Source of the DNA: Candidatus Poribacteria bacterium
Lineage (GTDB): Bacteria > Poribacteria > WGA-4E > PCPOR2b
Direction: 5' to 3'
NCBI GenBank assembly: GCA_965222435.1
Contig: OZ244950.1
Span: forward strand, 4,075,983 to 4,139,982
Length of the DNA: 64,000 nucleotides
Made by a program: the position numbers and the translations under genes. The notes under the pieces are model-generated. The model was given only the letters and a program-made list of their open reading frames with translations, ran no database searches and was not told the DNA's origin. Of this stretch, positions 2,180-32,163 are shown in pieces (the first letter of the stretch is position 1; each line of letters opens with the position of its first letter).

Positions 2180-3580
2180 ATGACGAGAAATCTGGGATAC
2201 CTTCTTGCACTTACCCTGCTGATTTCAGGGGTGATTTTGCAATCCGCGGGTATCGCTGAAGAAGGACTACCGGGTGTCAAGTCCATCGCAGACCTAGACC
2301 GTCTGGCAAACCTCCACTTCGCCATTATGAGCGATAACAAGGGGGATTCTCCGCTTAGTAGCGTGGAGTTTGCCCGAATGACCGCTTGGATTAAGGAGGG
2401 AAATCCCGCCTTTATGATAGGTTTGGGCGATCACGTCAAATATCGGTGGGAAAACACCTTTATCCCATGGCTACAATCCGATCCTTGGTGGCGTGAGCAC
2501 TTCTATCCCAACGTTGCGGACGGTGAGAACGAATACTACAGCCCTACCCACAGACAGTCGGACTACGGCGAGGGCGCACCGATACTCGATCTGGTAGAGC
2601 TAGATGCCCATGCAAGCGTCATCCGTCCAAACAAATCGGAATACTACGCCCAAATTTCGGTCGGCGATTATACCGTTCACCTGATTCAGATGCACTTCTC
2701 GGATCAGCCAATGGACGCAGCAGTCGCGTTCCCGGAGAGCAGCCAAGCGTGGATGATGGCAACCCTCAAAGACATCGAAAAAAAGGATAAGGACCTGATT
2801 ATCGTGGCGGCACATTCGCGGACAGGATCGTGGGACATGGTGCTTTCTCCAGAACGACGCCAACTCCTGCTGAACAAGACCGATCTGGTTCTCTCTGCCA
2901 CGACCCACAGATTCGAGGCATGGGTGCCGGAGGGGTTTGAGGGGGGAGACGCTGTTTGTATCAACACCGGAGCGGTGAATTACCCTGGACCGATGACCCC
3001 CAACGGCTATGTCGAAATCCACCTCATCGAATCGACGGGCGTTGTGGGACAGTACATAGACCTCACGCAGATAGGTCGTCGTCTCCAACAAGGGCGTTTT
3101 GCTTGGGTTAAACCCAAAGACGGATCGATGCGCCACCTCAACCTCCGACCACCCACCGCCGATGAAATCAATGAGCCAATCGCCAATCTCAACGAACCGC
3201 TCGAAGCGATGCAAATCGAACAGGGGCTTTCACAACTGATAAAAGAAAAGACGGGGGTGGACTTTGCCCTAGTGGGTACAAGAAATGGGCTCGATAAGGG
3301 TCCTGTAACACGAGAGGCAGCGTGGCGGGTCTTTGGGAAAAACACCAACATTAGGGTCGTCCGCATCCCGATAGCAAAAGTACTTCCTGTCCTTGGGCTT
3401 CTACAAAAGGAAGAGATTGCTTCACAGGGTGCTGCTATCCGTGTCGCAGCGCCGCATCCCACAATGACGGGGATCATCACCGTAGCGGGCATCACGCATG
3501 AAGCCATCGAACCGCAAGCGTTGGACGATAAAGGGTTGCGACAAGTTGACCTCCTCGTTGAATGGCTCACCTCTCAATGA
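2180..3580 (+). CDS. secreted hypothetical protein, possibly metallophosphoesterase-like
   Basis: Signal peptide (MTRNLGYLLALTLLISGVILQSAGIA). D/GD/H-containing blocks (IMSDNKGD, GLGDHVKY, VAAHSRTGSWD) weakly resemble calcineurin-like phosphoesterase motifs. Confidence 0.35.
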   Translation: MTRNLGYLLALTLLISGVILQSAGIAEEGLPGVKSIADLDRLANLHFAIMSDNKGDSPLSSVEFARMTAWIKEGNPAFMIGLGDHVKYRWENTFIPWLQSDPWWREHFYPNVADGENEYYSPTHRQSDYGEGAPILDLVELDAHASVIRPNKSEYYAQISVGDYTVHLIQMHFSDQPMDAAVAFPESSQAWMMATLKDIEKKDKDLIIVAAHSRTGSWDMVLSPERRQLLLNKTDLVLSATTHRFEAWVPEGFEGGDAVCINTGAVNYPGPMTPNGYVEIHLIESTGVVGQYIDLTQIGRRLQQGRFAWVKPKDGSMRHLNLRPPTADEINEPIANLNEPLEAMQIEQGLSQLIKEKTGVDFALVGTRNGLDKGPVTREAAWRVFGKNTNIRVVRIPIAKVLPVLGLLQKEEIASQGAAIRVAAPHPTMTGIITVAGITHEAIEPQALDDKGLRQVDLLVEWLTSQ

Positions 3581-3623
3581 ATCCTTCAAAAAAGACCTCC
3601 CCACTAGAAAGGAGGATAGATCC

Positions 3624-19062: not shown

Positions 19063-20466
19063 TTACTTTATCATAACTCGAAGCCTTGCTTCCGCAGCGT
19101 TTTGCATGTCCATGTAAGGCTCAAAATCCGCCAAGATCTGCTCCCGGCACGCCTGTGAAATTGGAACATTGATAACCTGTCCCGGCTTTTTTAGATCAAA
19201 GATCTTTAGTCGAAGATTTCTAGATTTGAACACCTCTGGCAGAAACATGAACACGCCTCTTTGGGCAATATCTTTCATTCTCACTGACTTTTCAGAGAAA
19301 GAAACAGGCATCATCCGCATTCCCCTAAGTACCTCCGGGATAGCATTACCTCCATCCATCAGTTCAAGATCCTGCAAATCTGATTTAAATTCGTAAGTGT
19401 ATGAACCTTGGTAATAGGTGCCGGAGTAACCAGCTGCCGCCGCTCCAAGAATATTTAAGAGAGTGCTACCAGTCGTTTGACCGACGTCTGGCTGGACATG
19501 GATTTGCACGAGTGGACTATACTTTCCCACATACTCTCTCCATTCCATTAAGAGGTCTCCCAAAGGATCATACATCTCCTGTTGAGGGACCCCTGCAGCA
19601 GCTTCCCTGCTCCGACGTTTCTCAGTAAGAGGTCCCGTTGAAATCTTTGTGAGAAAATACCGACGCGACGGAGTAAGGATCTGTATATCGAAACCAGGTG
19701 CCTTTAGCGTATAGTTGGAGGCTTTGCCACACCGTTCGGCTGCCCATTTCATGCCTTCTATCGGAAAAGGGTCTTCAGGAGCAACAGGCAAAAGGGTGGG
19801 AGGGGGCGGTTTTTCATGGAGTCTGCCACGGGCTTGGTCAAGGAGGGGCAGGGCAAGGGATATTAGAATACTTCCTGAAACTCCGGGACCTCTTGATGGA
19901 AAGTCACCAAATGTGTTGATGGCGATGACCTCGGAATCCATGTTAATTAGGGGTCCCCCTGAATTACCGGGGTTAATGTTCACATCTGAAATAATGGCAC
20001 GTTCCTCAACTTTACTTACGATCCCAGATGTGAGAATACGGGTTTGATTTAGAGGACTCCCTATGGCGATAACTCTTTCGCCCTCGAATGCAATATCGGC
20101 AGCTGGTCTGTCGGCGATTTTAAGGATTGGCAGTTCCTTTACGGCTTCTGGGGCAACCCGTAGAACGGCAATATCCTTTTGATTGTCTTCAGCAAGAAGT
20201 GTTGCCGGGATGCGGATGTTGGGATTTAGCTGCACTGAAATACGGCTTGAAGAAGCAATCACATGGGCATTGGTAAGAATGAGCCCACCCTTGTCAACCA
20301 AGAAACCACTTCCATGTCCTCTGTCTCCGTAGATCGTAAAAACTGCGTCTTTCATTTTACGGAATACAACGGCTTCTTCAGACACTTCCCTTGCCGCGGG
20401 GACCTGACTGCATACGAGGCTGCAAAGGATTAGACTTACAATTAACGTCAGAGATTTGGCTTTCAT
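19063..20466 (-). CDS. secreted trypsin-like serine protease (S1 family, DegP/HtrA-like protease domain without an obvious PDZ)
   Basis: Signal peptide; catalytic His context LILTNAHV; Ser context GNSGGPLIN. Confidence 0.65.
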   Translation of the reverse strand: MKAKSLTLIVSLILCSLVCSQVPAAREVSEEAVVFRKMKDAVFTIYGDRGHGSGFLVDKGGLILTNAHVIASSSRISVQLNPNIRIPATLLAEDNQKDIAVLRVAPEAVKELPILKIADRPAADIAFEGERVIAIGSPLNQTRILTSGIVSKVEERAIISDVNINPGNSGGPLINMDSEVIAINTFGDFPSRGPGVSGSILISLALPLLDQARGRLHEKPPPPTLLPVAPEDPFPIEGMKWAAERCGKASNYTLKAPGFDIQILTPSRRYFLTKISTGPLTEKRRSREAAAGVPQQEMYDPLGDLLMEWREYVGKYSPLVQIHVQPDVGQTTGSTLLNILGAAAAGYSGTYYQGSYTYEFKSDLQDLELMDGGNAIPEVLRGMRMMPVSFSEKSVRMKDIAQRGVFMFLPEVFKSRNLRLKIFDLKKPGQVINVPISQACREQILADFEPYMDMQNAAEARLRVMIK

Positions 20467-20560
20467 GATGAGTGTCTCTCCCGTAGACTAACGCAAGCTA
20501 TCGCCCAAAATCCCAGCGAGAGGATAGGCATAGCGTTCAGGAATTCAATGAACTAATGAG

Positions 20561-22660
20561 CTAGAAAGTTGCGCGTCCCACGCCTGTGTTCCCTGCCGCA
20601 TCGGTGACGCGAATGGTGATGGTGTGTTCACCGGCTGGTAGGGAGTTCGTATGAAGTGACAAGGTTTCGCGCTTGGAGTCGAAGATGCCATCGTCGGGGA
20701 AGATGACCTGCCAATGTTCATCGCTGTCGATTTTGTAAACCGCTTTCTGAATGTAGCTGGCTAGATCCTCCACCGTACAGGTAATCTGATGGGTTTGATC
20801 TTCATTCGCCGTCGCAGTTATATCGGTGACCATTGGTTGGCTGTTATCAATATCGAAGGGGTCGCTAATCTTCTCGGTAGACTTCGCAAAGTTGGGAGGA
20901 TTGCTGAGTTTGTCCGTCGCGTTGACCTTGATGACGTAACGTCCGTCGGACATTGAGGTGGTGTCCAGAGCATAGCTGGTCTTGTCCAACTCTTTTTTCA
21001 AGAGTTTCCAATTTGTCTCATCAATCCCCTTGTAATAGACGTTGAACTGCAACGTATCACTATTTTCGTCCTTCACCTTCCACGAAGCGGTATATTTTGT
21101 ATTATCTCCTCCCGAATTGGAATTGGAGGGGGTCCGACTTTCCCGTGGTCTACGAATACCTTCGGGCGGACTGGGACTTTCGGGGGCACCGCCCCGCCGG
21201 ACTTCAATCGAGGTGAATCGCGGTTCGGTATTGGATTGAACGGAAGCGACGGTCACTTTTTTGAGGACAGGCGTCGCAGAAACGGCACTCGTCGTGAGCT
21301 TGGCACGCCACTGAATATATCGTGCGGAGGCACTGGTAATCTGGGAGGTTTCGGGGTCTGTTAGTTCTTCTGACCAGTCATTCCATGTGCTATTGGGTTT
21401 CTCCGTGTTGCCAGTACGAGTGGCAAAAGAGATAGCTGTCCCTTCGGGTGTGACACCCTCCCACGATAACTTACCCCACCGCGAAACGACTTTGGTATCG
21501 TGCGCCTTGGATTCAAGCGTTCCCTCAGCGAGGTAATCCGATTTCAATTCAAAAATCTTCCCGGCGTTTCCTGTGGCAAGCAAGAGCCGATCTGAATTTG
21601 CGGTGCGATGAATCGCCAAGATCTGGCTCGCGCTACATTTGCCCTTCAGTACAGAATCGCCATCTGTGTTGACCCAGTACAACTTACCACTATCCCCTGT
21701 ACCGACATAAAGACCTTCCTCCGAATCAAACACCATTGCCAGAATCAAGGGATCAGGTGCTTCCCACATAACAGATACGATGCCATCCGGCTGAATTTTG
21801 TAGACCCTCGACTTCTTTTCTTCGGGATTACGACCCCCAGGACCCGGAGGACCGGGAGGCGGGGGCGGACCGCCGGGCTGTGGTGCTGCTGTCGTGATGG
21901 TTCCTGCATAGATTAACCCCTGTGCCCCAATAACAAGCCTGCGCACCTCTTTCTGCCCCGTTTGGTAGATCACAGTAGCCGCACCGTCCTCCGTTTTGAC
22001 GCTATAGATAGTCCCTTTGCCGTCGCTACCGGCATACAGCATTCCCTGATGATAGAGCAAACATAAAATGTTACGTTCGTCGGAATCATAGAGGACGCTG
22101 GTCTGTCCATCGGGTGTAATCTTGTAAATTTTCCCACTGGTGCCGGTCGATGCATATAGATTCCCTGCCTCATCAAAGGTCATCGCCCAAACGTACTTCT
22201 CCTCCGAACTGAGTATCGTTGTCGGCGGGGTGCTACTGTCCGTGAGCTTGTAGATTAGCCCGTCCGGGGCTGTACCGGCATAGATGTTGTCATTGGAATC
22301 AATAGCCAGTGTCAAGATTGAAACCTCTGGCGAATCGTAAAAGAGCGAGGATTCACCATCGGTATTGATCCGATAAATCTTGCCACTGTTTCCTGTGCCC
22401 GCGTAGATGTTTCCTTTGGAATCCTCAGCGAGGCACCAGATATATATCTCTTTGGTATCCTCAAAGAAGGCATCCAATTTAGGAGCCAACATGAGCTCGC
22501 CTCTACTTGAGAGCGAAACATCTTTGGGCTTACCAGATTCAAAGTCCTTTTGGTTTTGTTGTTCCCAGATCCGTGTCGTCACCCCGAACACTGGTAGAAG
22601 ATGGATCGAAAAGAAAACGACGGCGACACTAAAAATATAAAAAACACGGTAAAACGCCAT
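20561..22660 (-). CDS. beta-propeller repeat protein with Pro-rich linker and C-terminal Ig-like region
   Basis: At least 7 repeats of about 40 aa (NIYAGTGNSGKIYRI, NIYAGTAPDGLIYKL, NLYASTGTSGKIYKI, MLYAGSDGKGTIYSV …). N-terminal TM/signal. PPPPGPPGPGG linker. Confidence 0.5.
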   Translation of the reverse strand: MAFYRVFYIFSVAVVFFSIHLLPVFGVTTRIWEQQNQKDFESGKPKDVSLSSRGELMLAPKLDAFFEDTKEIYIWCLAEDSKGNIYAGTGNSGKIYRINTDGESSLFYDSPEVSILTLAIDSNDNIYAGTAPDGLIYKLTDSSTPPTTILSSEEKYVWAMTFDEAGNLYASTGTSGKIYKITPDGQTSVLYDSDERNILCLLYHQGMLYAGSDGKGTIYSVKTEDGAATVIYQTGQKEVRRLVIGAQGLIYAGTITTAAPQPGGPPPPPGPPGPGGRNPEEKKSRVYKIQPDGIVSVMWEAPDPLILAMVFDSEEGLYVGTGDSGKLYWVNTDGDSVLKGKCSASQILAIHRTANSDRLLLATGNAGKIFELKSDYLAEGTLESKAHDTKVVSRWGKLSWEGVTPEGTAISFATRTGNTEKPNSTWNDWSEELTDPETSQITSASARYIQWRAKLTTSAVSATPVLKKVTVASVQSNTEPRFTSIEVRRGGAPESPSPPEGIRRPRESRTPSNSNSGGDNTKYTASWKVKDENSDTLQFNVYYKGIDETNWKLLKKELDKTSYALDTTSMSDGRYVIKVNATDKLSNPPNFAKSTEKISDPFDIDNSQPMVTDITATANEDQTHQITCTVEDLASYIQKAVYKIDSDEHWQVIFPDDGIFDSKRETLSLHTNSLPAGEHTITIRVTDAAGNTGVGRATF

Positions 22661-22811
22661 GAAAGAGAAATCCTCCGTTGAGTTAGTTCATTAGTTCATT
22701 GGTAGTTCATTGTTCAATTGTGGTTACGGCATACGGAGTATGCCTACTACTTTGGGTCATTAGTTCATTGGTTTATTTCACGCATCAGCGGAATCTATCG
22801 ATCCTGAAAAA

Positions 22812-24689
22812 TTACGGGGCATTGCGGTCAACCGTAAACCGCAAAAATCGACTGCCAGAGACCACATAGGGCGTCGTCACCTTTTCAAAATGTAGCGTTG
22901 TGCCGCGAGTGGGTCCACCTTCGCCAGATTGCGTGGGTGTGCTCATCACAGAGAGCATCGATACCGGCAGTTCAGGAAACTCTTCCCCCTGAACAGTCAT
23001 ACCCACCCTAGGCACAAACAGTTCCAAGATGATATCACTGTTGTTTTCCTCCCGCTGCAACAATTTGATTAATTGGTTGATATTGGTCGGTTGATAATTT
23101 AAGGGTGCCCTCGCCTGCTGCCAACTTTCATATAAGTCCGGACTGATAGCGAGAAGGGTGGTTAAACCTTCGGGAGCATCTTCCGGAATCGTAATCGTAC
23201 CGGTCTGGATGATCGGTGCTTCGAGGTATGGACGCAGGCGCATGGTCACCTCAATTTTTTCGCCGGGTCGGTATTGATCTTTGTCGATCCGTACCGCTTC
23301 GATGACCGCTGTTTTCCGTTTGTCCTCCATTTTGATATCGAGGTCTATACGCTCCACATCAATCTTTTCATATTGATTGCCAATTAAGCTAAACAGCGGA
23401 GTCAGTGCGCGGGTCGCCTGAAATCCCGGTGAGCCACTGGAGGAGTACACATTCCTCCGCACAATCTCGCGCGATGTCAGATTCGGCTGATCTTTCAGCA
23501 GGATTTTCGCGTCAACGTTGACGGAGTGGTCACCGGCGATGATTTCGATGCCATCAATAATGTACCAAAGCGCAATGAGGGTGTATAGCGTCGAGAAATC
23601 CCGATGGCGGATTACTTCATAGTGTGTTGGGTGGACCTTCCCATCCATTGTCTGGATGTTGGCATTAACAGGAATAAAGCTGGGATGAGAACCGATCAAG
23701 CCAGCAATTGCCGCCTGACGGTCTTGCACGAGTGTGCCAATCGGTTGTGTCGGAGAAGCTATTTTGGAAGATCTCTGTGTACTCGGTAAAATGAAGTGGA
23801 CATAACCGCCGGAAATCGGCAAATTGACGTTGCCCTCGCCGAACATCGAATGACCAAAGCCCAAGAGCTGATCTCCTTCAATATAGGTCATGGTTCCATA
23901 CCCGAAGGCGGTGAAAGCCCCACGGACAAATTCCAAACCCACAATCTGTCCCGGCTCAATCGGCGCACTACCAACGGGTGAACCTCCGCCAGCGCCTTGT
24001 ATCGGACTGAAATGATATTTGTCAAAAAACTGCTTGAAAAATCCGATCGCATCCGTCGGCAATCCTGAAAACGCTACAGGCATCTGAAGATGTGAAGGCT
24101 TCTGGAACCGATCGGGAGACGGTAAGATTCCCATTCGTGCTTCGGGGATCTGTTTTCTATCGGGCGTCAGAGGCAACATTTCGATGCCCTTTGATACCGT
24201 GTCTGTCCCGAAGTTAAAACGCGTTCCACCCCGATAGCTTAAATTGGGCTGCATCCTCCGCTGTGTCACTTCAATCATCAACTCAATCGGTGTCACTCCC
24301 ATGAGATTAGCATGTTCGCGCTGGTTAAAGTAGCCGAGAGAAATCGCGCCAATGAGCCGTCCGTTAATATACATCGGACTCCCACTCATACCGCCGGCGA
24401 CGCCTGTCTTTTCAAAGTTTTCGCCGCTGCCTTTGACCCATATCACGTGCCAATTGGGATAGAAATTGTACTCAATACTGACCACCTCAAAATTAAACTT
24501 TTCAACAGTTGTGCCCGAAAAGACGGTATATCCCTCCCCTTTCACGCCGGGCGCAATCTCTGCTAACGGCATAAATTTCGATGAATCCCATTTAATTTCT
24601 GCGCTCGCTTGAAGGGCAATCAAGCAGAGGAGACTAATTATCAATACAAAACAACTTCTTTTCAAAGTCCACCTCGTTCCATTTTTCAA
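22812..24689 (-). CDS. secreted serine peptidase, possibly S55 (SpoIVB-like)
   Basis: Signal peptide; GMSGSPMYINGRLIGAIS resembles the SpoIVB-type GMSGSP catalytic-serine motif. Confidence 0.35.
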   Translation of the reverse strand: MKNGTRWTLKRSCFVLIISLLCLIALQASAEIKWDSSKFMPLAEIAPGVKGEGYTVFSGTTVEKFNFEVVSIEYNFYPNWHVIWVKGSGENFEKTGVAGGMSGSPMYINGRLIGAISLGYFNQREHANLMGVTPIELMIEVTQRRMQPNLSYRGGTRFNFGTDTVSKGIEMLPLTPDRKQIPEARMGILPSPDRFQKPSHLQMPVAFSGLPTDAIGFFKQFFDKYHFSPIQGAGGGSPVGSAPIEPGQIVGLEFVRGAFTAFGYGTMTYIEGDQLLGFGHSMFGEGNVNLPISGGYVHFILPSTQRSSKIASPTQPIGTLVQDRQAAIAGLIGSHPSFIPVNANIQTMDGKVHPTHYEVIRHRDFSTLYTLIALWYIIDGIEIIAGDHSVNVDAKILLKDQPNLTSREIVRRNVYSSSGSPGFQATRALTPLFSLIGNQYEKIDVERIDLDIKMEDKRKTAVIEAVRIDKDQYRPGEKIEVTMRLRPYLEAPIIQTGTITIPEDAPEGLTTLLAISPDLYESWQQARAPLNYQPTNINQLIKLLQREENNSDIILELFVPRVGMTVQGEEFPELPVSMLSVMSTPTQSGEGGPTRGTTLHFEKVTTPYVVSGSRFLRFTVDRNAP

Positions 24690-24945
24690 TTGCGGAATTT
24701 TAATTCGCTTAGCGTGTAATAGAAATCCGATCTCTCATTTCTAAAATCGGGTTTATGATAACAGTTTATTTGAAACGATGTCAAGCGCAATAATTTTGCA
24801 CCCCGTAATTTTCGCATTGTCGAGATGTGAATATCGACCTACAGAAAGAATCGCTATAAACACAAAAAGCCGGGTGAAGAGGTATACTCTTTCCCGGCTT
24901 TTCGGGTGCAATTAAGGATAGGGTCGAGATAAATATAGTGAGCGT

Positions 24946-25118
24946 TATGCGCGAAGTTTTCGGTAGAGATACACGATTGCAAAACCGATCGCACCGAGCA
25001 AGATGACGGTAAAGGCGAGTTTAAACGCCCAAGTGATAACAGGTAGAATCATACTCAATGCTAGTAGAATCAAGACACATATCAGCACTAAGATGACAAG
25101 ATTTCTCAGTAATCCCAT
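24946..25118 (-). CDS. small membrane protein (about 57 aa, two TM helices) ending the PspA operon; below the ORF-track size cutoff
   Basis: ATG at 25116-25118 (reverse strand) preceded by AAGGAG. Translation MGLLRNLVILVLICVLILLALSMILPVITWAFKLAFTVILLGAIGFAIVYLYRKLRA. Coordinates approximate to within 1-2 nt at the 3' end. Confidence 0.4.
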
Positions 25119-25140
25119 TAGATGCAGCTCCTTTTCATTC

Positions 25141-25800
25141 TCACTCTTTTAGGCGGGCTTTGAGCTTGGCAAGTTCATCATCAATTTCGTCTTTCTTGTC
25201 GAGTTTGTCAAACTCATCCTCCAAACTAGGTTGACGCATTTCGCTAAGCGCTTCAGCCTCTGCTTCCGCATCAAGGACTCGATCCTGAATGCGATCAAAA
25301 GCGTTCAACGCACTCGGATCCGAAAGCCCCGATACGGTCTGATGGATTGTCCGTTCCGCCTCTGCCCGCCTTTGGCGAGCAATCAGCAACGCCCGTTTGC
25401 TCTTTGCCTCTTCAATTTTTTGTTCTAAGGTTGCCAACCCATCTTTAAGTACGGAAACGCTCCCTTGCTGCGCCTCAAATTGCTCACGAAAACCCGCTGC
25501 CAAGTCGTCGGCGGACCGCTTGCGGCGAAGGGCTTCTTTTGCGCGGGCATCATCGCCGTTCTGGATAAACACGATGGCACGCTTTTCCCACTTCTCAGCA
25601 CCCTCTAAGTTCTCCTCATACTGCGCTTCAAATTTGTTTCCGTCCCGGATAGCCGCAGCGACTTGAATCTTTACCTCTTTGAGTTCGTACTGCATATCCT
25701 CCAAGAGTTGGTTCAAGATCTTCTCCGGATCTTCAACCCGATCTAGCAGGTCGTTTATATTTGAATTGAATATCCGCCTGATTTTCTCAAAGATCGGCAT
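25141..25800 (-). CDS. pspA: PspA/IM30/Vipp1 family protein (copy 1)
   Basis: MPIFEKIRRIFNSNINDLLDRVEDPEKILNQLLEDM… canonical PspA N-terminus; coiled-coil throughout. Confidence 0.8.
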   Translation of the reverse strand: MPIFEKIRRIFNSNINDLLDRVEDPEKILNQLLEDMQYELKEVKIQVAAAIRDGNKFEAQYEENLEGAEKWEKRAIVFIQNGDDARAKEALRRKRSADDLAAGFREQFEAQQGSVSVLKDGLATLEQKIEEAKSKRALLIARQRRAEAERTIHQTVSGLSDPSALNAFDRIQDRVLDAEAEAEALSEMRQPSLEDEFDKLDKKDEIDDELAKLKARLKE

Positions 25801-25831
25801 TGGTGGTCACTCCCTTACCTACTCTCAGCGA

Positions 25832-26398
25832 CTAAACTGTATATCTGCCCAGTGTTTCTTCATCTAAATGCTCCAACTCGTCTTGAGACTGCTGCCGCTC
25901 TGCCTCCCTCAACTCTGTCTCAGGAAAGCCAATCTCTTGAACAATCGATTCTGCCACATAGATAGGCACCCCTAATCTCAAGGCGAGCGCGATCGAATCG
26001 CTTGGGCGAGCATCAATCTCCAACGTTTTGCCGTTGGCTACCACATTGATCTGCCCAAAATAGGTTGAGTCTTTCATAGTATGTACGTAGACCGCATCAA
26101 CTGTCGCATCAAGGCTTTCGATGATGTTTTTCATGAGATCATGTGTCATCGGACGTAGCGGATCTTCACCTTTGAGCTGAAATTGAATTGAGAGCGCCTC
26201 CCCCTGTCCGATCCATATAGGTAGCACCAATTTTGGATCGCCCTCTGTCTCCCTCAAAAAGAGAATCGGTGCGCCACTACTCGCATCAATAGAAATGAAC
26301 GCCACTTCCACTGCGATCATGTTCTTTCCGTTCATTTGGAGGTGTTCATCGGCTTGTTCTTTCATCTTAGACTCCTTTGTTGCTAACTTGAAATTCAA
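25832..26398 (-). CDS. bifunctional nuclease (BFN, DUF151) domain protein
   Basis: RPSDSIALALRLGVPIYV matches the BFN/DUF151 core. Start may be the internal MKEQADE…. Confidence 0.6.
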   Translation of the reverse strand: MNFKLATKESKMKEQADEHLQMNGKNMIAVEVAFISIDASSGAPILFLRETEGDPKLVLPIWIGQGEALSIQFQLKGEDPLRPMTHDLMKNIIESLDATVDAVYVHTMKDSTYFGQINVVANGKTLEIDARPSDSIALALRLGVPIYVAESIVQEIGFPETELREAERQQSQDELEHLDEETLGRYTV

Positions 26399-26514
26399 TT
26401 GGAGTCGCCGATGATGTGAACCATGTTACAAGAATGTTGCCACTTGTCTTGTCATCGACAATTCCAAATTGTCTGTCACACCGACTCCGGTTTGTCATCT
26501 CAACCAGTGCTATA

Positions 26515-28422
26515 TCATGTTGAATCTTGGTCAGTTGATTCCGGTGTTTCCGTTTTGGCGGTCAGATCCAAGCCAGGGACGTATTGGCTCACGGTCTTAG
26601 CGAGATCCTGAGCATCAATCCCCCCAAAATTCAGGACCTCTTTCAGCATTGGTAGTGCTGCACCAGCCTGCAAAATGGATCCGAAAATCTTACCCATGTT
26701 CCCGCCCGGAGCACCGTTTCCAGCTCCGTTTCCGCCAAGGTCAAGGATGCGGATGCTTTCAATCTGTTCCGCGGGTTTCATCAATTGACCTGTGACTTCG
26801 GGCAGGGATTGGATCAGTTTCAACAGCGCCTCGTTATTCAGAATCCGCTGATCCGCGGTGTTCTTCGCTTCAATAAGTGCCTCTTCCCCTTCCGCCTTCG
26901 CTTTTGCTTCAACCAAGAGTGCCTCAGCGAGCATCTTCTGCGCTTCTGCTCTGAGAGTGGCGGCTTCTCGCTCCGCTTTAGCGGCCTCGATAACAGCGTA
27001 GGCTTCGACATTTGCCAGTCGTTCCTTTGAAATGCGCTCTTCATCCGCCTCCTGTTCGGCTCCGATTAACGCGATTCGGCTATTACGCTCGGCTTCCTCA
27101 ATCGCTTCCACCGTCAAGACTTGGGCTTCAGATTTGGTCCGCTCAGCGGTTGCAGCCAACCGATCTGTAGAGGCAATTTCGAGTTCCTTCTCCTTCACCG
27201 CAATCTGAATTTCGCTTGCGGCTTGGGTCTCTTTTTCTTCTCGATTTCTCTCAACAAGCACGATTCGCCTTCTAACATTGGCTTCCTCGATTGCCTGTTG
27301 TTGACGGACGCGCGCTTCTTCAACGGTGCGTTCCTGCTCAATTCGGGCTTGTTCAATTGCTTGGTCTCGCTCAATTTCAGTAGCTTGAACTTCTTGCTCC
27401 TGAGACACACGCGCAGTCTCCAGGGCCCTTTTCTGTTCTATCTCCGCTTCTTGGATCTGCCGCTCCTGATCAATTCGAGCGGTTTCAATCCGCTGTTTCT
27501 GCTGGATCTGCGAAGATTGTACCGCTTCTTCCTGACGGATACCCGCCTCCTCAAGGGCTTGTTGTTGCTGAAGTTCTGCCTCTTTGACGATACGTTCTTG
27601 TTCCGCTTTATTCGTCTCAACCTCTTTGCGCTGTATCTCTTGGGCAAATGCCAGTCGCTTTTCGACCTCTAGGCTCTCTGTCTGCGTTGCCTCCTCCTGC
27701 TGCTTGATCGCCAAGTCTGCTCTCAGTTTATCTTCCTCTTGTTTGACTCTGTTTTCATGCTTAATTCGTTCCGTTCTTGTTTGCCGTTCTTGAACCTCTT
27801 GATTGATAGTCTGAATGGCAACCACATCAAAACGGTTGTTTGCATCAAGTTGGTCGAGAGGGGTTTGATCGAGGTTCGTCACTGCAACACTTTCGAGTTG
27901 AAAACCGTTCTGTTCAAGATCATCTTTGCAGCTTTCCCGAACCTGATCTGAAAAATCTTGACGTTTTTCATGAAGTTCTTGAAGATCCATTGTTGCTGCC
28001 ACACTCCGTAGTATCCCAACCAGTTTTCCTTCAAGCAGAGCTTTCACATTCTCCGGCTCCAAGGTTTTATCCCCAAGGCTTGCAACCGCACTAAGGACAT
28101 CCTGTTCATTGGGTTCAATCTTCACATAGAATTGGGCTTCAATATCAACACGCAGGCTGTCTTTTGTGATTAAGGCATCCGGTCCAGTCCGTTGAACTAA
28201 AAGCTGCATGGTATTCAACGAAACCAGTTGTGTTGCTTTTGTCAGTGGATTAACGATTTTACCGCCAAAGACAACACTCTTCCTTTTACCGCCTGAAATG
28301 ACCAATGCGGCATCAGCGGGTGCCTTTTTATATAGCGCTTTGTAGGTAAGAAACATAATCAGGAAAAACGCTGCAATTACAGCGATAATACCGAAAAAAG
28401 GCGTCAAGCTCAGGCCTTCCAT
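26515..28422 (-). CDS. flotillin-like SPFH/band-7 protein (YqiK/FloT-like) with long Glu/Gln-rich coiled coil
   Basis: N-terminal TM, SPFH core (…LVQRTGPDALITKDSLRVDIEAQFYVKI…), then repetitive QEEA/EQER heptad-like repeats. Confidence 0.8.
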   Translation of the reverse strand: MEGLSLTPFFGIIAVIAAFFLIMFLTYKALYKKAPADAALVISGGKRKSVVFGGKIVNPLTKATQLVSLNTMQLLVQRTGPDALITKDSLRVDIEAQFYVKIEPNEQDVLSAVASLGDKTLEPENVKALLEGKLVGILRSVAATMDLQELHEKRQDFSDQVRESCKDDLEQNGFQLESVAVTNLDQTPLDQLDANNRFDVVAIQTINQEVQERQTRTERIKHENRVKQEEDKLRADLAIKQQEEATQTESLEVEKRLAFAQEIQRKEVETNKAEQERIVKEAELQQQQALEEAGIRQEEAVQSSQIQQKQRIETARIDQERQIQEAEIEQKRALETARVSQEQEVQATEIERDQAIEQARIEQERTVEEARVRQQQAIEEANVRRRIVLVERNREEKETQAASEIQIAVKEKELEIASTDRLAATAERTKSEAQVLTVEAIEEAERNSRIALIGAEQEADEERISKERLANVEAYAVIEAAKAEREAATLRAEAQKMLAEALLVEAKAKAEGEEALIEAKNTADQRILNNEALLKLIQSLPEVTGQLMKPAEQIESIRILDLGGNGAGNGAPGGNMGKIFGSILQAGAALPMLKEVLNFGGIDAQDLAKTVSQYVPGLDLTAKTETPESTDQDST

Positions 28423-28458
28423 TTTGAACCTCCTCGCGTAAGGATACGCGTCGAACCA

Positions 28459-29163
28459 TTATAATGAAATAAGTGAACTATCCTCTTTCGTCACCTCAAA
28501 AATCCGTCCCTGCAAATCGTAATCAATGAGAATCACCGTGTCTCCCTTTACGGGAATATCCTCGCCCTCACGAATACGGCAACTGACGGTCAATTCGGGG
28601 CCATCCGGCACCGGGACACGCGCTGTTCCAAAGGTTGTTGTGACCCGACCGCTAATCACTCGACCTCTTAAACCGATTAAGTGAGAGTCGTTAGTGGCAC
28701 GGTCGCTTTCAGGAAATAGCTTTGAAAGTCCCAGTGCGAGGTAACGGGTGCCGAATATACTACACAGAAGCGCAGCCCCGACAGAAATCCAGAGCGTGTA
28801 TCGTGGGGAGTGAACGTTGACATTCAGAAACTCATTAACAATCAAGCCTGAAATTCCCCAAGTTGCAAAAAGTGCCATCAGGAGAACTGTAAAAGGTACT
28901 TTGCCAACGTTCAAAATTCCTAATACGCTGGGGATAAAGCTGCCGCCGCCCGAACTGCTGTCGACGTCAACGTCTGGATCAACATCGGCGTCAACGTCTA
29001 CATCGGCATCGACCTCCGTATCAACGTTCACATCGGTGTCTCCGCCCCCAAAATCCAGACCGCCCATGACGAGCTGGAAGATAGCAAAGAGAAACATGAA
29101 CGCAATCGGTGCTGTAAACCAAACATTATACCAGACAAAAATGTAATTAAGAAAATCGCCCAT
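28459..29163 (-). CDS. NfeD-like membrane protein (flotillin partner, YqiJ-like) with D/V-rich spacer and C-terminal OB-fold
   Basis: N-terminal TM helices, (DVDV)n tract, C-terminal GRVISGRVTTTFGTARVPV…GDTVILIDYDLQGRIFEV characteristic of NfeD C-domains. Confidence 0.6.
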   Translation of the reverse strand: MGDFLNYIFVWYNVWFTAPIAFMFLFAIFQLVMGGLDFGGGDTDVNVDTEVDADVDVDADVDPDVDVDSSSGGGSFIPSVLGILNVGKVPFTVLLMALFATWGISGLIVNEFLNVNVHSPRYTLWISVGAALLCSIFGTRYLALGLSKLFPESDRATNDSHLIGLRGRVISGRVTTTFGTARVPVPDGPELTVSCRIREGEDIPVKGDTVILIDYDLQGRIFEVTKEDSSLISL

Positions 29164-29182
29164 ATCTGCTCCCGCTCACAGG

Positions 29183-29569
29183 TCATTCGCGGCAAGAGAC
29201 AATCAACGTCATTGCGCGTTTAGCATCACGGTAGCTGATGTTGTCAATTAGATATTTATCCCCGTTCACTGTAATTTCAAGGGCAGCTTGTCCAAAGATG
29301 CGGTGTTTGAGACTTTGGTTCAGTTCGATCGCGGTAATCTGAGAAAACGGGAGGTTGCACCGAATGTTGATGTAGGAAGCACTCATACTTCCCATCTGAC
29401 GCTCCTCTAACACCAACACCCGGTCAGAAGTGATGACGACGAAATCGGGATTCAGCAGGCTAGATCTCCCAAGCGTACACAACCTGATCTGCTCATCTGC
29501 ATTTAGTTGCGCTTGGGCTGTCTCCTGAATGCGAAACGGTAACCGATGAAAATCAGCCATCCACGTCAC
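29183..29569 (-). CDS. hypothetical protein, possibly a bacterial PH-like (bPH) domain
   Basis: 128-aa ORF between PspA copy 2 and NfeD; beta-rich sequence pattern. Confidence 0.3.
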   Translation of the reverse strand: MTWMADFHRLPFRIQETAQAQLNADEQIRLCTLGRSSLLNPDFVVITSDRVLVLEERQMGSMSASYINIRCNLPFSQITAIELNQSLKHRIFGQAALEITVNGDKYLIDNISYRDAKRAMTLIVSCRE

Positions 29570-29573
29570 TCCG

Positions 29574-30257
29574 TTAGGGATCTTGATTCTCAGGATGGAC
29601 TTTGGTTTTCAATGCCGTAAGATCTGCCTCGACCTTTTCGTTGTTCTCAAGTTCATGAAACTTCTGCTCAAGGTCATCACCTTGTGTCAACTCAGCCAAC
29701 GCTTCCGCATGCACTTCGAGATCGCGAACACGATCAACTAACCGATCGTAAGCATCAAATGCGGTGGTGTCAACGACTGTATCAGCCGGTGACGTCGCGC
29801 CGACAGTGGACTGCAACACCCCTAAACTTTCAGCGGCAGCCAATTTCGCAGTTTGATAGCGCGTCGTGTCTAGCTTGGTCTCTAACGTTTTCAAACTGGA
29901 CTTGAGAGAGTCGATGATCTCCTGCTGCGTCTCGATCTGCTCACGATACAGGTCTGCCTTGTTTGCATGCTCACCTTTGCGGGTGAGTGCCCGGCGAGCG
30001 AGATCTTCCTCCCCTTTTTTCAAGGCGAAAACCGCTTTCTTCTCCCACCTTTTGGCTTCAATTCCGTGCGCGTCGATCTCCCGTTCTATCAACTTGAGAT
30101 CGGCAATCGCCCCCGCGATTAAAGCCTTTACATGGCGCACGTTTTGGCGCATCTCTTCCACCATCAGACCGCGTGTTTTGCGCGTATCTTCCGCTTTCTC
30201 TAGGAGATCGTTCACATGCGATCTCACAATGAGCTTGGCTCGATTTAACGTTTGCAC
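29574..30257 (-). CDS. PspA/IM30 family protein (copy 2)
   Basis: MQTLNRAKLIVRSHVNDLLEKAEDTRK…; PspA-like coiled-coil. Confidence 0.75.
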   Translation of the reverse strand: MQTLNRAKLIVRSHVNDLLEKAEDTRKTRGLMVEEMRQNVRHVKALIAGAIADLKLIEREIDAHGIEAKRWEKKAVFALKKGEEDLARRALTRKGEHANKADLYREQIETQQEIIDSLKSSLKTLETKLDTTRYQTAKLAAAESLGVLQSTVGATSPADTVVDTTAFDAYDRLVDRVRDLEVHAEALAELTQGDDLEQKFHELENNEKVEADLTALKTKVHPENQDP

Positions 30258-30420
30258 AGTTCAGTTCCTCCTTGTAACATTGTTAGACATCAAAATGATT
30301 AACTCAATTGTGTCTGACAGGAGGCTACAAGGATATTGCCATTATAGAAGGTGAAACATGAAGCCAATGTACATTGGCTTCATCAGTTCAATGAACCAAT
30401 CAACTAAAATCTTAAAAAAA

Positions 30421-31010
30421 TGGAGGTGGCGGGACACGTTAATCCCCCGGTTTCCCAGAGGCGTGGACTATATCTTCATCCAACCAAAATGATGGAGCCT
30501 AGCGTATTATAGGAGACCTAGATTTGTCGCTGACATTATCTCCTATCATTACAGTCTCTACAGGACCATACAATCCCTCGGTATTGCCATAAGATGTCTC
30601 CATCTCTTAGGTTTCACCGATGTAAGCTAGATTTAATCGAGGAGGTTGCCCTCCAAGTCGACCAAACTGATCGAACCCGCGTCCGAGAACACTTCAATAA
30701 AGGCTACTACATGCTTAGCATAAGTTTTAGTGTTTCGTCCACAGGACTCACTTATGCAGGATTCACCGCGGACTATCTCAAGTTAATTCTCGCGCCATGC
30801 CCCTTGAGAACAAGTAAGGCGCATAGCCCGTTTGTTGACGTCGGGCTAACTCGACGGGACCGCAAATTAGCCGGACGAGCCACTTTATTAAGCGGCTAGA
30901 GCCAATTCTTCATCGGCAATTAAATTGTTTCCGCCTGTTTAACGAGGCCTGCGGAGACCTCGGCATGCAACCTTTATGTCATCTACTCTCGTCGAAACCT
31001 TTTCACCCCC
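30421..31010 (-). ncRNA. ssrA: tmRNA (ssrA) gene interrupted by a group I intron in the T-loop. 5' exon 30670-31010, intron 30435-30669, 3' exon 30421-30434. The CCA end is not encoded
   Basis: Reverse strand reads 5'-GGGGGTGAAAAGGTTTCGACGAGAG…GGTTGCATGCCGAGG…GCCTCGTTAAACAGGCGGAAACAATTTAATT-GCCGATGAAGAATTGGCTCTAGCCGCTTAATAA…CTAAAACTTATGCTAAGCATGTAGTAGCC…GGACGCGGGTTCGAT. This tracks E. coli tmRNA block by block, with a tag reading frame ending …ALAA-TAA-TAA. The T-stem 3' strand, acceptor strand and discriminator (TCCCGC-CACCTCC-A, with the G3·U pair) sit 235 nt further on. Confidence 0.85.
30435..30669 (-). other. group I intron (235 nt) inserted in the tmRNA T-loop
   Basis: 5' exon ends in U, which pairs with G of the intron guide sequence GGTCGA against exon TCGAT. 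P2 hairpin GGAGG-GCAA-CCTCC. R-like element GTAGAGACTGTAA and the conserved S/P7 element AAGATATAGTCC. Intron ends in G. Joining the exons regenerates the canonical T-arm GCGGG-TTCGATT-CCCGC. Confidence 0.75.
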
Positions 31011-31040: not shown

Positions 31041-31487
31041 CTATTTGCTCAACAACTCAATAACCTTGGCAATGCCTAAACAAAGCACACCAAGAGTACA
31101 GAAATAAAACGTCATACCAAGTGCTGTTACAACCCCGCCAAGAGACAATTCTGCCGTTGGAGAAGAAGAGCTGGACGATACAGATTGACTGAATAAGATA
31201 AGCATAGCTATTCCTGCGATAACCCCGAAAATTACTGATAGTATACCGATTATGCGTAATGCCTTAGCTATAGGTAGACTTTTCGTGGGGCCATCATTGA
31301 TACTTTCTGCCGATTCGGAAATAGAAGCCTTAATCATAAGTTCTGCGGCTTCGTCATCAATGCTTTCCGCTGATTCGGGAACAGAATTACTTGCCCCGCA
31401 GTTTCGGCATTCGGCAGCCTCACCAACTTTCAAGAACCTAACAGCAATGTCTTCGCCACAGTTTTTACACTGAAATTTCAAAGCCAT
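31041..31487 (-). CDS. hypothetical membrane protein with N-terminal zinc ribbon
   Basis: CKNCGEDI…CRNCG Cys4 motif, acidic linker, two C-terminal TM helices, Ser-rich tract. Confidence 0.4.
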   Translation of the reverse strand: MALKFQCKNCGEDIAVRFLKVGEAAECRNCGASNSVPESAESIDDEAAELMIKASISESAESINDGPTKSLPIAKALRIIGILSVIFGVIAGIAMLILFSQSVSSSSSSPTAELSLGGVVTALGMTFYFCTLGVLCLGIAKVIELLSK

Positions 31488-31528: not shown

Positions 31529-31993
31529 CTACCGAAGATACGATTGGATTGCCCGTTGATCTGCTTCCCTCCGCATATCTTCGCGCTTGTCGTAATCGTG
31601 CTTACCACGCGCCACCGCAATTTCGACCTTTACCTTGCCGTTACTGAAATAAGCCTTCGTTGGAACAATCGTCATGCCGGTAGATCGAGTTTTTCCCTCG
31701 AGCTGCTTAATCTCTCGACGGTTCAACAGGAGCTTCCGTTTCCGCTTCGGCTCATGATTCTCGCGATTGCCTTGCTCGTAAGGACCGATATGGGCATCAA
31801 TCAAAAAGACCTCCCCTCCATCAACACGAGCGTAGCTATCAGTCAAATTCATCCTGCCAGTACGAATCGCCTTGACTTCCGTTCCCTGAAGCACCATCCC
31901 AGCCTCGAAACGATCCATCAAGTGATAATCGTATCGCGCTTTCTTATTTGTAGCAACTGGACCCGTGGTCGCAACAGACTTCGCATCTTTCAT
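31529..31993 (-). CDS. smpB: SsrA-binding protein SmpB
   Basis: NKKARYDYHLMDRFEAGMVLQGTEVKAIR… matches SmpB family across its length. Internal Met chosen as start. About 0.5 kb from ssrA. Confidence 0.85.
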   Translation of the reverse strand: MKDAKSVATTGPVATNKKARYDYHLMDRFEAGMVLQGTEVKAIRTGRMNLTDSYARVDGGEVFLIDAHIGPYEQGNRENHEPKRKRKLLLNRREIKQLEGKTRSTGMTIVPTKAYFSNGKVKVEIAVARGKHDYDKREDMRREADQRAIQSYLR

Positions 31994-32163
31994 AGTGCGT
32001 GAATTATAGCATAAACACAAAGGTGGCGCAAGGGCAAAAAGGCTTGATTATTCCCCGCATCCGTTGTAGAGTTATAGACAAAAGATGTGTGAAACGTGAT
32101 GCGTGAAACGTGAATGAGCTAGTGAACTAATGAACCAATGAGCCAATATAACGGGAGAAATAG

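Follow-up and report, generated by a model that had tools for sequence, protein, structure and literature searches.

What does a run of seven genes that joins two PspA proteins, a flotillin and a protein from a family labelled as nucleases do for the cell that carries it, and is it read as a single operon, as an earlier note on this DNA proposed? The genes lie on the minus strand of a 64-kb window (the whole stretch of DNA analysed here) from a Candidatus Poribacteria bacterium, a member of a sponge-associated phylum. Only in a few model bacteria is there a good understanding of Psp/ESCRT-III membrane repair, and the partners involved vary widely between phyla. Our analysis suggests, with a probability of roughly 0.6, that the cluster is a lineage-specific Psp (phage-shock) membrane-stress system found across Poribacteria, with two sigma-54-type units, two partnered PspAs, an optional flotillin pair, and a BFN (DUF151) protein as partner or regulator of PspA2.

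All seven reading frames described between 24946 and 30257 are present (Table 1), and the gap range of 4 to 116 nt given earlier is borne out by gaps of 4, 19, 36, 116, 31 and 22 nt. Two starts differ from those first called. BFN almost certainly begins at the ATG listed in the table, which has an AAAGGAG ribosome-binding site and is the start chosen by gene callers on an identical contig; with this start the gap between flotillin and BFN becomes 149 nt and holds the predicted promoter P2. For bPH, comparison with homologues points to the ATG at 29560 as the probable start, giving 125 aa. The small two-helix gene TM57, too short for the earlier ORF list, is real: standard gene callers report it, and it is kept in more than 12 related loci, lying at the same position in L001-L004, L089-L092, L095, L098, L105-L107, L115 and L135. 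No Pfam profile matched it.

Table 1. Genes and predicted signals of the cluster, in order of transcription; positions are those of the window.
Feature	Position	Strand	Basis or remark
P1, predicted sigma-54-type promoter (-24/-12), TGGCAATATCCTTGTA	30326..30341	-	69 nt upstream of PspA1 start
PspA1, 227 aa, GTG start, divergent PspA/IM30 paralogue	29574-30257	-	PF04012
bPH, small soluble bPH_3 protein, 128 aa as called	29183-29569	-	PF14470
YqiJ-like membrane protein, 234 aa	28459-29163	-	PF21001 YqiJ_N
Flotillin, YqiK/FloT-type, 635 aa	26515-28422	-	PF15975 Flot
P2, predicted sigma-54-type promoter, TGGCAACATTCTTGTA	26427..26442	-	62 nt upstream of BFN ATG
BFN/DUF151, 177 aa from ATG 26365 (almost certain start)	25832..26365 (first called 25832-26398)	-	PF02577
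PspA2, 219 aa, canonical-looking PspA/IM30 paralogue	25141-25800	-	PF04012
TM57, 57 aa, two predicted TM helices, C-terminal YLYRKLRA	24945-25118	-	conservation in relatives
Intrinsic terminator hairpin, then UUUUUGUGUUU	24863..24909	-	RNA folding; closes cluster

Which protein families are these? Profile searches against Pfam uphold the earlier domain calls for both PspAs, bPH, the flotillin and BFN. PspA1 and PspA2 match PF04012 over the whole profile with 115.9 and 162.8 bits (cutoff 33.9), while neither reaches the NCBIfam equivalog cutoff for E. coli PspA or that for LiaH, so that by profile score they are members of the PspA/IM30 family and not orthologues of either. They had been described as divergent paralogues, and indeed they are only about 32% identical and fall into two distinct orthologous groups. 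The bPH protein scores 32.1 bits against PF14470 bPH_3 (cutoff 23), and its AlphaFold2 model (pLDDT 86.4) has the seven strands and C-terminal helix of a PH-like fold, with the bacterial PH domains 3dcx and 3hsa as the top PDB matches and eukaryotic PH domains next. Its family comprises only 229 clusters, and every named one is from Poribacteria.

The gene called NfeD is an NfeD-like flotillin partner, lying immediately upstream of flotillin with a gap of 36 nt, as expected of the partner in pairs of the E. coli yqiJK and B. subtilis yuaFG type, but its family is YqiJ (48.2 bits against PF21001 YqiJ_N, cutoff 23); a search for PF01957 (NfeD) gave no match even at E ≤ 5, and no PDB sequence matched. 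An OB-like C-terminus may be expected from its membership in the YqiJ family. The protein also carries an acidic DVDVD low-complexity loop. The flotillin has an N-terminal TM segment, a probable SPFH domain, a long E/A/Q-rich coiled coil and a Flot domain; it scores 75.8 bits against PF15975 Flot (cutoff 27), slightly under the cutoff for Band_7 (22.1 against 23.6 bits), and 61 bits (1e-16) against NCBIfam FloT, far under the equivalog cutoff.

The earlier note regarded a single operon of two PspAs, a flotillin scaffold and a nuclease as unusual. For PspA with flotillin taken by itself this does not hold, since PspA with band-7/flotillin and YqiJ/YuaF operons has been described (Ravi et al. 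2024, PMC11237479), as has PspA with Band7/FloT and NfeD in Acidobacteriota (Popp et al. 2022, PMC9239133), and those systems, like ours, place a PspA in a cluster with a YqiJ-type membrane protein and a flotillin of the YqiK/FloT type. Nor is the scaffold central to the module. Most relatives lack the YqiJ-flotillin segment, carry a shortened form of it or have other sequence in its place, and it is absent even from strains that share 97% identity in BFN. Full-length flotillin occurs only in the window (and L131), L091 and L009, being truncated or absent elsewhere, and relatives carry a second type of YqiJ paralogue or fragments only. Judged from these comparisons, the pair is an optional part of the cluster. 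The published PspA-flotillin clusters, moreover, centre on CesT/Tir-PspA (YjfI-YjfJ), often with an AAA+ ATPase, and Pfam searches found neither CesT/Tir (DUF2170) nor an AAA+ ATPase among the cluster genes. In Poribacteria the cluster can do without the flotillin pair, and its constant partners are BFN and bPH; neither DUF151/BFN nor bPH is mentioned in the two Psp surveys (PMC11237479, PMC9239133).

What, then, is conserved? Gene order was compared across about 45 related loci, all from one phylum, so that part of the conservation must reflect shared descent; several of them come from near-identical strains and are not independent. The comparison bears out the expectation that the arrangement would recur in relatives, with a phylum-wide core of PspA1-bPH ... 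BFN-PspA2(-TM57). The bPH gene comes after PspA1 in every locus but L005. In all 23 loci retrieved with the PspA2 query (at least 51% identity; one of them is a contig-edge fragment), BFN is the gene immediately upstream of PspA2. BFN is absent from all 19 loci with more distant PspA homologues, 12 of which extend 600 nt or more upstream. The BFN-PspA2 link is kept from 97% down to about 40% BFN identity with differing flanks. Outside the phylum, 79 BFN loci had no PspA, flotillin, YqiJ or bPH within 8 kb; the neighbours there are MiaB, MetK, PtsI and ParA-like genes. As far as gene neighbourhoods can tell, the fixed and unusual links are thus BFN-PspA2 and PspA1-bPH, and both are confined to Poribacteria. 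The cluster usually adjoins smpB/tmRNA.

Could this order simply be inherited synteny of a single phylum, with BFN a housekeeping gene that sits among psp genes beside smpB-ssrA and has no functional coupling to them? The restriction of the linkage to Poribacteria, the housekeeping-like settings of BFN in other phyla and the usual smpB/tmRNA neighbour would all fit such an account. We nevertheless consider it very unlikely, because the BFN-PspA2 pair is kept without nearby smpB and with other flanks (L008 and the L100 group), because it outlasts repeated deletions and insertions around it, and because BFN comes first after a second copy of the psp-type promoter. BFN has also been duplicated in place, as tandem copies inside the cluster in L007 and L009, and at least one relative has a separate BFN paralogue elsewhere, so that the cluster copy is not the sole one. 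Coupling of BFN to the psp genes remains our preferred reading, although BFN is not strictly dependent on an adjacent PspA, since L009 and L004 have BFN with YqiJ/flotillin or TM58 and without PspA nearby.

We now turn to how the genes may be transcribed. An exact search of the 64-kb window for TGGCAA-N5-TTGTA found two occurrences, against 0.02 expected; the first precedes PspA1 and the second BFN. The predicted promoters P1 and P2 are nearly identical, lie on the coding strand and stand at a suitable distance from their genes. The P1 motif is found upstream of PspA1 in all 16 relatives with sequence there, as the sole invariant block in otherwise diverged intergenic DNA, and P2 is kept together with conserved flanking blocks in eight related loci (including L001, L003, L007 and L089-L092). 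The -12 element is TTGTA in the clade of the window, compared with the canonical TTGCA; a freshwater clade has the canonical TGGCAA-N5-TTGCA. Downstream of TM57 a terminator hairpin folds with -25.1 kcal/mol (z = -4.33), and none of 200 shuffled sequences folds as well. No sigma-54 activator or rpoN lies in the 64-kb window, where no reading frame contains the GAFTGA motif, but a related locus encodes a bEBP with a Sigma54_activat domain, from which it follows that the phylum uses sigma-54.

Because near-identical P1 and P2 are conserved amid diverged DNA and a terminator follows TM57, the cluster is better read, on the strength of these predicted promoters, as two co-regulated tandem units rather than one operon. 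The single seven-gene operon proposed earlier would have all genes transcribed from the promoter upstream of PspA1, with P2 non-functional or a minor internal promoter. Its observational basis stands, in that all genes share a strand with short gaps, and it gains something from the lack of a U-run terminator between flotillin and P2 and from the freshwater clade, which has the P1 motif only and in which PspA1-bPH-BFN-PspA2 looks like one unit. However, the internal P2 matches the P1 pattern exactly, at the chance expectation given above, it is conserved with its flanking blocks, and it is retained wherever the YqiJ-flotillin segment has been deleted, so we regard a single operon as unlikely.

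Is BFN a nuclease, as its family label would have it? That it carries the BFN domain is clear (127.4 bits against PF02577, cutoff 27), and it resembles TM0160 (1sj5/1vjl) both by profile (5e-35) and by fold, with an AlphaFold2 model of pLDDT 83.6 that Foldseek superimposes on 1sj5 at TM 0.88 (E 6e-14). It also has a conserved C-terminal tail, LEHLDEETLGRYTV. If BFN were a true DNase or RNase effector, in a cluster induced by membrane damage (e.g. by phage or toxins), it would degrade nucleic acid, in an abortive-infection-like manner or for RNA recycling, while PspA and flotillin dealt with the membrane. DNase and RNase activity has been reported for the plant DUF151 proteins OmBBD and AtBBD1/2 (PMC7249048), and the gene stands behind a stress-type promoter; BFN moreover retains the family's invariant polar residues (E56, R71, H75, D76, D118, R120, S122 and D123), which leaves room for an enzymatic role. 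On the other hand, the only bacterial DUF151 protein assayed, M. tuberculosis Cor, a protein with no domain besides DUF151, is a dimeric stress-resistance factor with a conserved cleft whose recombinant form has no DNase or RNase activity, and the authors of that study suggest that the plant nuclease activity is perhaps not located in DUF151 (PMC3870250). The fold resembles no known nuclease in the Foldseek search, TM0160 being the sole match, a search of all seven proteins against the PADLOC defence models gave no hit at E ≤ 0.01, and the 79 loci from other phyla place BFN in housekeeping contexts (MiaB, MetK). An effector nuclease is in our view improbable, and the nuclease label, though the domain call stands, is doubtful.

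The analysis above establishes the gene content, the domains and folds, the patterns of conservation, the promoter motifs and the terminator. It leads to the following model, in which stress induction, the activator, all contacts between proteins and the role of BFN are what we infer. P1 would drive PspA1-bPH-YqiJ-flotillin and P2 would drive BFN-PspA2-TM57, and an enhancer-binding activator encoded outside the window would turn on both units together under membrane stress, in parallel with the action of PspF and sigma-54 at E. coli pspA. PspA1 and PspA2 would form ESCRT-III-like polymers that attach to damaged membrane and seal it, and each would have a small fixed partner of its own: for PspA1 the soluble PH-domain protein bPH, and for PspA2 a dimeric BFN/DUF151 protein along with the two-TM protein TM57, probably a membrane anchor of the LiaI or PspB kind. 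The NfeD-like/SPFH pair YqiJ-flotillin may serve as an optional scaffold, repeatedly lost or truncated, that helps recruit PspA to membrane patches much as YdjI does in B. subtilis. BFN most likely serves PspA2 as a protein partner or regulator, perhaps by way of its conserved, disordered C-terminal tail, and probably not a nuclease.

How does this compare with known systems? The membrane-stress role proposed earlier is a reasonable one given the PspA and SPFH families, the Psp-like sigma-54-type promoters and the precedent of B. subtilis, where coupling of SPFH protein and PspA was shown experimentally and YdjI recruits PspA (PMC8581546). With E. coli pspF/pspABCDE the cluster shares a PspA/IM30 protein (PF04012) behind a sigma-54-type -24/-12 promoter, small membrane proteins and a predicted role in membrane-stress protection; it differs in having no PspB or PspC homologues (by Pfam and NCBIfam) and no adjacent PspF, in having two PspAs rather than one, and in its partners bPH, BFN/DUF151 and the novel TM57. 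In B. subtilis pspA-ydjGHI, too, PspA and an SPFH protein are genetically hard-wired with small membrane proteins, but YdjI is a short SPFH protein rather than a flotillin, neither YdjG nor YdjH is related to YqiJ or TM57, BFN and bPH are both missing, and regulation is of the sigma-W/LiaRS type, as against the sigma-54 predicted here. BFN itself shares its domain, its fold (E 5e-35; TM-score 0.88) and its small stand-alone form with TM0160 (1vjl, 1sj5) and Cor/Rv1829, a stress-survival factor. The actinobacterial DUF151 copy lies among MerR/FHA genes and that of most phyla beside MiaB or MetK; only in Poribacteria is DUF151 fixed beside PspA behind a psp-type promoter.

More generally, the cluster adds two PspA partner families, DUF151/BFN and a phylum-specific PH-domain protein, that are absent from the Psp surveys PMC11237479 and PMC9239133, and it is an example of a Psp system not of the pspF-pspABC type in which sigma-54 promoters appear to be used. 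It also shows the flotillin/YqiJ scaffold to be an accessory of PspA systems that lineages acquire and lose within short evolutionary times. Since Poribacteria are uncultured, tests would have to be heterologous and the immediate impact is limited. The association of BFN with PspA2 yields a specific hypothesis, open to test, about the function of DUF151, a domain of many phyla and of plants that includes an M. tuberculosis pathogenesis gene and for which the name nuclease is doubtful. We put forward tentatively, at clearly less than even odds, the wider proposal that the DUF151 domain, rather than being a nuclease, partners or regulates ESCRT-III-like PspA polymers as a dimer, or acts more widely in membrane and redox stress, and that the bPH of Poribacteria is a new PH-domain adaptor for bacterial ESCRT-III. 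If this is true, the BFN-PspA2 pair would give a first genomic hint of what the DUF151 proteins, a widespread orphan family to which the M. tuberculosis virulence factor Cor belongs, do in the cell.

Our analysis points to a Poribacteria-wide Psp-type membrane-stress regulon as the best-supported reading of this cluster. The seven minus-strand genes described in an earlier note are indeed present: the recomputed ORFs run head to tail at 24945-30257, with gaps of 4, 19, 36, 116, 31 and 22 nt, and encode, in 5' to 3' order, a PspA/IM30 paralogue (PspA1), a PH-domain protein (bPH), a YqiJ-like protein, a flotillin, a DUF151 protein (BFN), a second PspA/IM30 paralogue (PspA2) and a 57-aa two-TM protein (TM57). 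Profile searches, which that note proposed for part of the set, bear out both PspAs, bPH, flotillin and BFN, and the note's observation of gene set and domains stands, one name apart: the protein called NfeD is not matched by the Pfam NfeD model and belongs to the YqiJ family. The start codons of BFN and, probably, of bPH are corrected as well (table below). The note's interpretation, a single-operon membrane-damage or microdomain repair module, is supported in part only. PspA1 and PspA2 share about 32% identity and form two clean orthologous groups. An AlphaFold2 model of bPH (pLDDT 86.4) has a PH fold, closest to the bacterial PH domains 3dcx and 3hsa, and TM57, conserved in more than 12 loci, has a pair of hydrophobic helices and ends in the basic stretch YLYRKLRA. 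PDB sequence searches with the YqiJ-like protein and with flotillin found nothing.

Features of the cluster and its flanks, in window coordinates
Feature	Position	Strand	Evidence or description
smpB	31529-32020		upstream of cluster, with tmRNA gene
148-aa protein	31041-31487	-	between smpB and tmRNA gene
tmRNA gene	30421-31002	-	adjoins cluster; T-loop split by group I intron
Rfam tmRNA match	30668-31002		lacks last 15 model positions
Intron_gpI match	30444-30679		35.9 bits, E 2e-7; below gathering score 50
tmRNA 3' exon	~30421-30436		GTCCCGCCACCTCCA
Palindrome	30360-30385	-	ATGAAGCCAATGTACATTGGCTTCAT; perfect, 26 nt
P1	30326-30341	-	sigma-54-type -24/-12 motif, 69 nt before PspA1 start
PspA1		-	Pfam PspA_IM30 115.9 bits
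bPH	start probably 29560	-	Pfam bPH_3 32.1 bits (cutoff 23)
YqiJ-like		-	Pfam YqiJ_N 48.2 bits
Flotillin		-	Pfam Flot 75.8 bits; Band_7 22.1 bits, slightly below 23.6 cutoff
P2	26427-26442	-	sigma-54-type -24/-12 motif, 62 nt before BFN ATG
BFN	ATG at 26365	-	Pfam BFN_dom 127.4 bits; 177 aa; ribosome-binding site, same start on identical contig
PspA2		-	Pfam PspA_IM30 162.8 bits
TM57		-	no family matched in Pfam profile search
Terminator (convincing)	24863-24909		3' of TM57; strong hairpin then U-run, -25.1 kcal/mol, z = -4.3
625-aa protein	within 19063-24689	-	weak SpoIVB/S55 peptidase match
699-aa protein	within 19063-24689	-	beta-propeller/Ig-like; linker PPPPPGPPGPGG
Trypsin-like protease	within 19063-24689	-

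The arrangement recurs in relatives, as a neighbourhood search suggested by the earlier note might find. A first set of loci, collected through BFN homologues, is tabulated below, with genes assigned by tblastn and by iterative HMM searching; the best BFN matches (up to 97% identity) are annotated Candidatus Poribacteria, and one contig, L131, is identical to that of the window. Because loci found through BFN carry an ascertainment bias, we added a metagenome scan with a PspA2 alignment. Here BFN lies directly upstream of PspA2 in all 23 loci with PspA2 of at least 51% identity (in one of them BFN is only a fragment, at a contig edge) and in none of the 19 with more distant PspAs. The commonest order, PspA1-bPH-BFN-PspA2, may or may not include a 56-aa TM gene, and the named relatives of these BFNs are again Poribacteria. 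When genomes were scanned with the BFN alignment, the matches listed were almost all non-Poribacterial; within-phylum statistics were therefore drawn from the PspA2-based scan, and the BFN scan supplied an outgroup of at least 79 loci from phyla including Gemmatimonadota, Acidobacteriota, Cyanobacteria, Actinomycetota and Desulfobacterota. Among the matches listed, 0 of 79 have PspA, flotillin, YqiJ or bPH within 8 kb of BFN, whose neighbours there are MiaB, MetK, PtsI or ParA-like genes. Among 5.8 billion database proteins the bPH family itself accounts for only 229 clusters, and all of its named members come from Poribacteria. Confinement to one phylum is what mere inherited synteny would also give; set beside a BFN-PspA2 pair that persists while its neighbours vary, that explanation of the gene order seems very improbable.

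Gene layout at related loci found through BFN
Locus	BFN identity	Layout
L133/L134	97%	PspA1-bPH-YqiJ fragment-BFN-PspA2-TM57
L001/L002	80%	PspA1-bPH-YqiJa-(remnants)-BFN-PspA2-TM57
L135	69%	PspA1-bPH-YqiJ-128-aa flotillin C-terminus-BFN-PspA2-TM57
L003	66%	PspA1-bPH-YqiJa-YqiJb fragment-BFN-PspA2-TM57
L004 (marine)	59%	YqiJ-like-BFN-TM58, no PspA
L007	~55%	PspA1-bPH-BFN-BFN-PspA2
L005	52%	PspA1-BFN-PspA2
L006	49%	PspA1-bPH-YqiJ-BFN-PspA2
L008	43%	BFN-PspA
L009	42%	bPH-YqiJ-flotillin-BFN-BFN, no PspA

The YqiJ-flotillin pair is, on these comparisons, an optional part of the cluster. Full-length flotillin occupies this position only in the window/L131, L091 (72% identity) and L009 (55%). In L133/L134 the DNA alignment shows homology through bPH that resumes 10 nt past the flotillin stop codon, the intervening 2.6 kb (26506-29139) being replaced by a 288-nt YqiJ C-terminal fragment, and L001 retains remnants, namely the first 39 residues of a window-type YqiJ and the last 47 of flotillin. 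Throughout this erosion P2, BFN and PspA2 stay intact. From this distribution we conclude that the seven-gene form is probably ancestral for a large part of the phylum and has been repeatedly eroded. In two different lineages, L092 (800-1120) and L135 (6521-6904), the position of the full gene is taken by an intact 128-aa ORF corresponding to the C-terminal Flot domain (residues ~508-635). This ORF may represent a stable "mini-flotillin" gene, or else the DNA may have been kept for upstream elements of P2.

How is the cluster transcribed? A generic sigma-70 and terminator scan did no better than on shuffled sequence, failing to pick up P1, P2 or the true terminator, and it was after this that reading the upstream regions yielded the motif TGGCAA-N5-TTGTA. 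It occurs exactly twice in the 64-kb window, as P1 and P2, against 0.02 expected, and two matches arose in 0 of 100 shuffles. A P1-type motif precedes PspA1 in 16/16 loci having sequence there, in the freshwater clade as the canonical TGGCAA-N5-TTGCA; P2 precedes BFN in the sponge-type clade (L001, L003, L007, L089-L092), and the motif is the sole invariant block in a 15-region upstream alignment. Two tandem units under common regulation would thus describe the cluster best, the presence of P2 speaking against the single operon of the earlier note. A single operon whose internal motif is silent is unlikely, even though no U-run terminator was found between flotillin and P2, so that read-through from flotillin into BFN is possible. 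No GAFTGA-type activator is encoded within the window; a sigma-54 activator gene is present at one related locus, and therefore the phylum uses sigma-54. A shared upstream activator site for P1 and P2 was abandoned as a candidate, since the k-mer search turned up nothing beyond the tmRNA 3' exon and the intron core, both of them conserved.

The flanking DNA has features of its own. ARAGORN found no tmRNA in the window because an intron splits the gene: the Intron_gpI match begins exactly where the Rfam tmRNA match breaks off, and the missing 3' exon lies beyond it. Relatives L001, L003, L006 and L097 have conserved both the 3' exon and the core of the intron. To our knowledge, the only earlier report of a group I intron in a tmRNA T-loop is from a Clostridium species. 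The palindrome between the tmRNA 3' end and P1, which folds as an 11-bp hairpin, was dropped as an operator for lack of conservation in relatives; lying directly past the tmRNA 3' end, it is probably an ssrA terminator. L003 carries an insertion between the tmRNA region and PspA1 (3067-3607), made up of a toxin-antitoxin pair of BrnT/BrnA type and a 201-aa ORF, consistent with ssrA-adjacent entry of mobile DNA. In the 148-aa protein (64% identity in L133), a zinc ribbon of the form CxxC...CxxC at the N-terminus is accompanied by repeats of the motif SAESI(D/N)D and by TM helices at the C-terminus. Three genes on the cluster's strand, immediately downstream of it, make up a putative secreted-protease group.

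BFN is clearly homologous to T. maritima TM0160 (profile E 5e-35), its AlphaFold2 model (pLDDT 83.6) has a TM-score of 0.88 to 1sj5, and the structure search matched no other fold. The family-invariant polar residues are kept, as one would expect if BFN were the real nuclease effector that its label in the earlier note implies. However, the name "nuclease" traces to plant proteins, and among bacterial members only M. tuberculosis Cor has been tested: this dimer, which has a conserved cleft and gives stress (CO) resistance, showed no DNase or RNase activity (PMC3870250). The label is thus doubtful, and a nuclease role is distinctly unlikely. The C-terminal tail, L-x-x-L-D-E-E-x-L-G-x-Y-x-V, is conserved, falls in a low-confidence region of the model and is presumably disordered; BFNs of freshwater Poribacteria and of one cyanobacterium have a similar tail (..L.PEDF..). 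BFN is tandemly duplicated within the cluster in L007 (8001-9082; the first copy, of 138 aa, lacks the tail) and L009 (7511-8498). On the contig of L002 (L132:6001-6855), in an unrelated neighbourhood, a second BFN-domain protein is fused C-terminally to an AhpC-TSA/Redoxin/thioredoxin-like domain; the cluster thus does not hold the only BFN, and the fused domains may point to a connection of DUF151 with redox stress.

In the membrane-stress regulon that we propose, both units would be switched on by a sigma-54 activator whose gene would lie elsewhere; PspA1 would act with its PH-domain partner and PspA2 with the small TM anchor and with BFN, the latter presumably in a non-nuclease role, and the two sets would jointly act on damaged membrane. 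Where present, the YqiJ-flotillin scaffold might help to localise PspA, by analogy with the SPFH protein YdjI, which does so in B. subtilis (PMC8581546). PADLOC models matched none of the seven proteins, and a defence-system reading was dropped.

The PspA-flotillin part of the cluster is not new, since operons combining PspA, Band7/FloT and NfeD are published from Acidobacteriota (Popp et al. 2022, PMC9239133) and PspA with flotillin and YqiJ in a 2024 paper (PMC11237479). Those operons, however, centre on CesT/Tir-PspA pairs and AAA+ ATPases, both absent here. E. coli pspA offers a parallel in its sigma-54 promoters, but the cluster lacks PspB, PspC and an adjacent PspF. PMC11237479, PMC9239133 and the accessible portions of their supplements make no mention of DUF151/BFN, PF02577, bPH or Poribacteria, and a full-text literature search found no paper on Poribacteria and PspA. 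New here are the constant pairing of BFN with PspA2 and of PspA1 with bPH, the two sigma-54-type promoters, and a flotillin that can be dispensed with. The chief value of the cluster is that it gives the orphan DUF151 family a lead to its function that can be put to the test.
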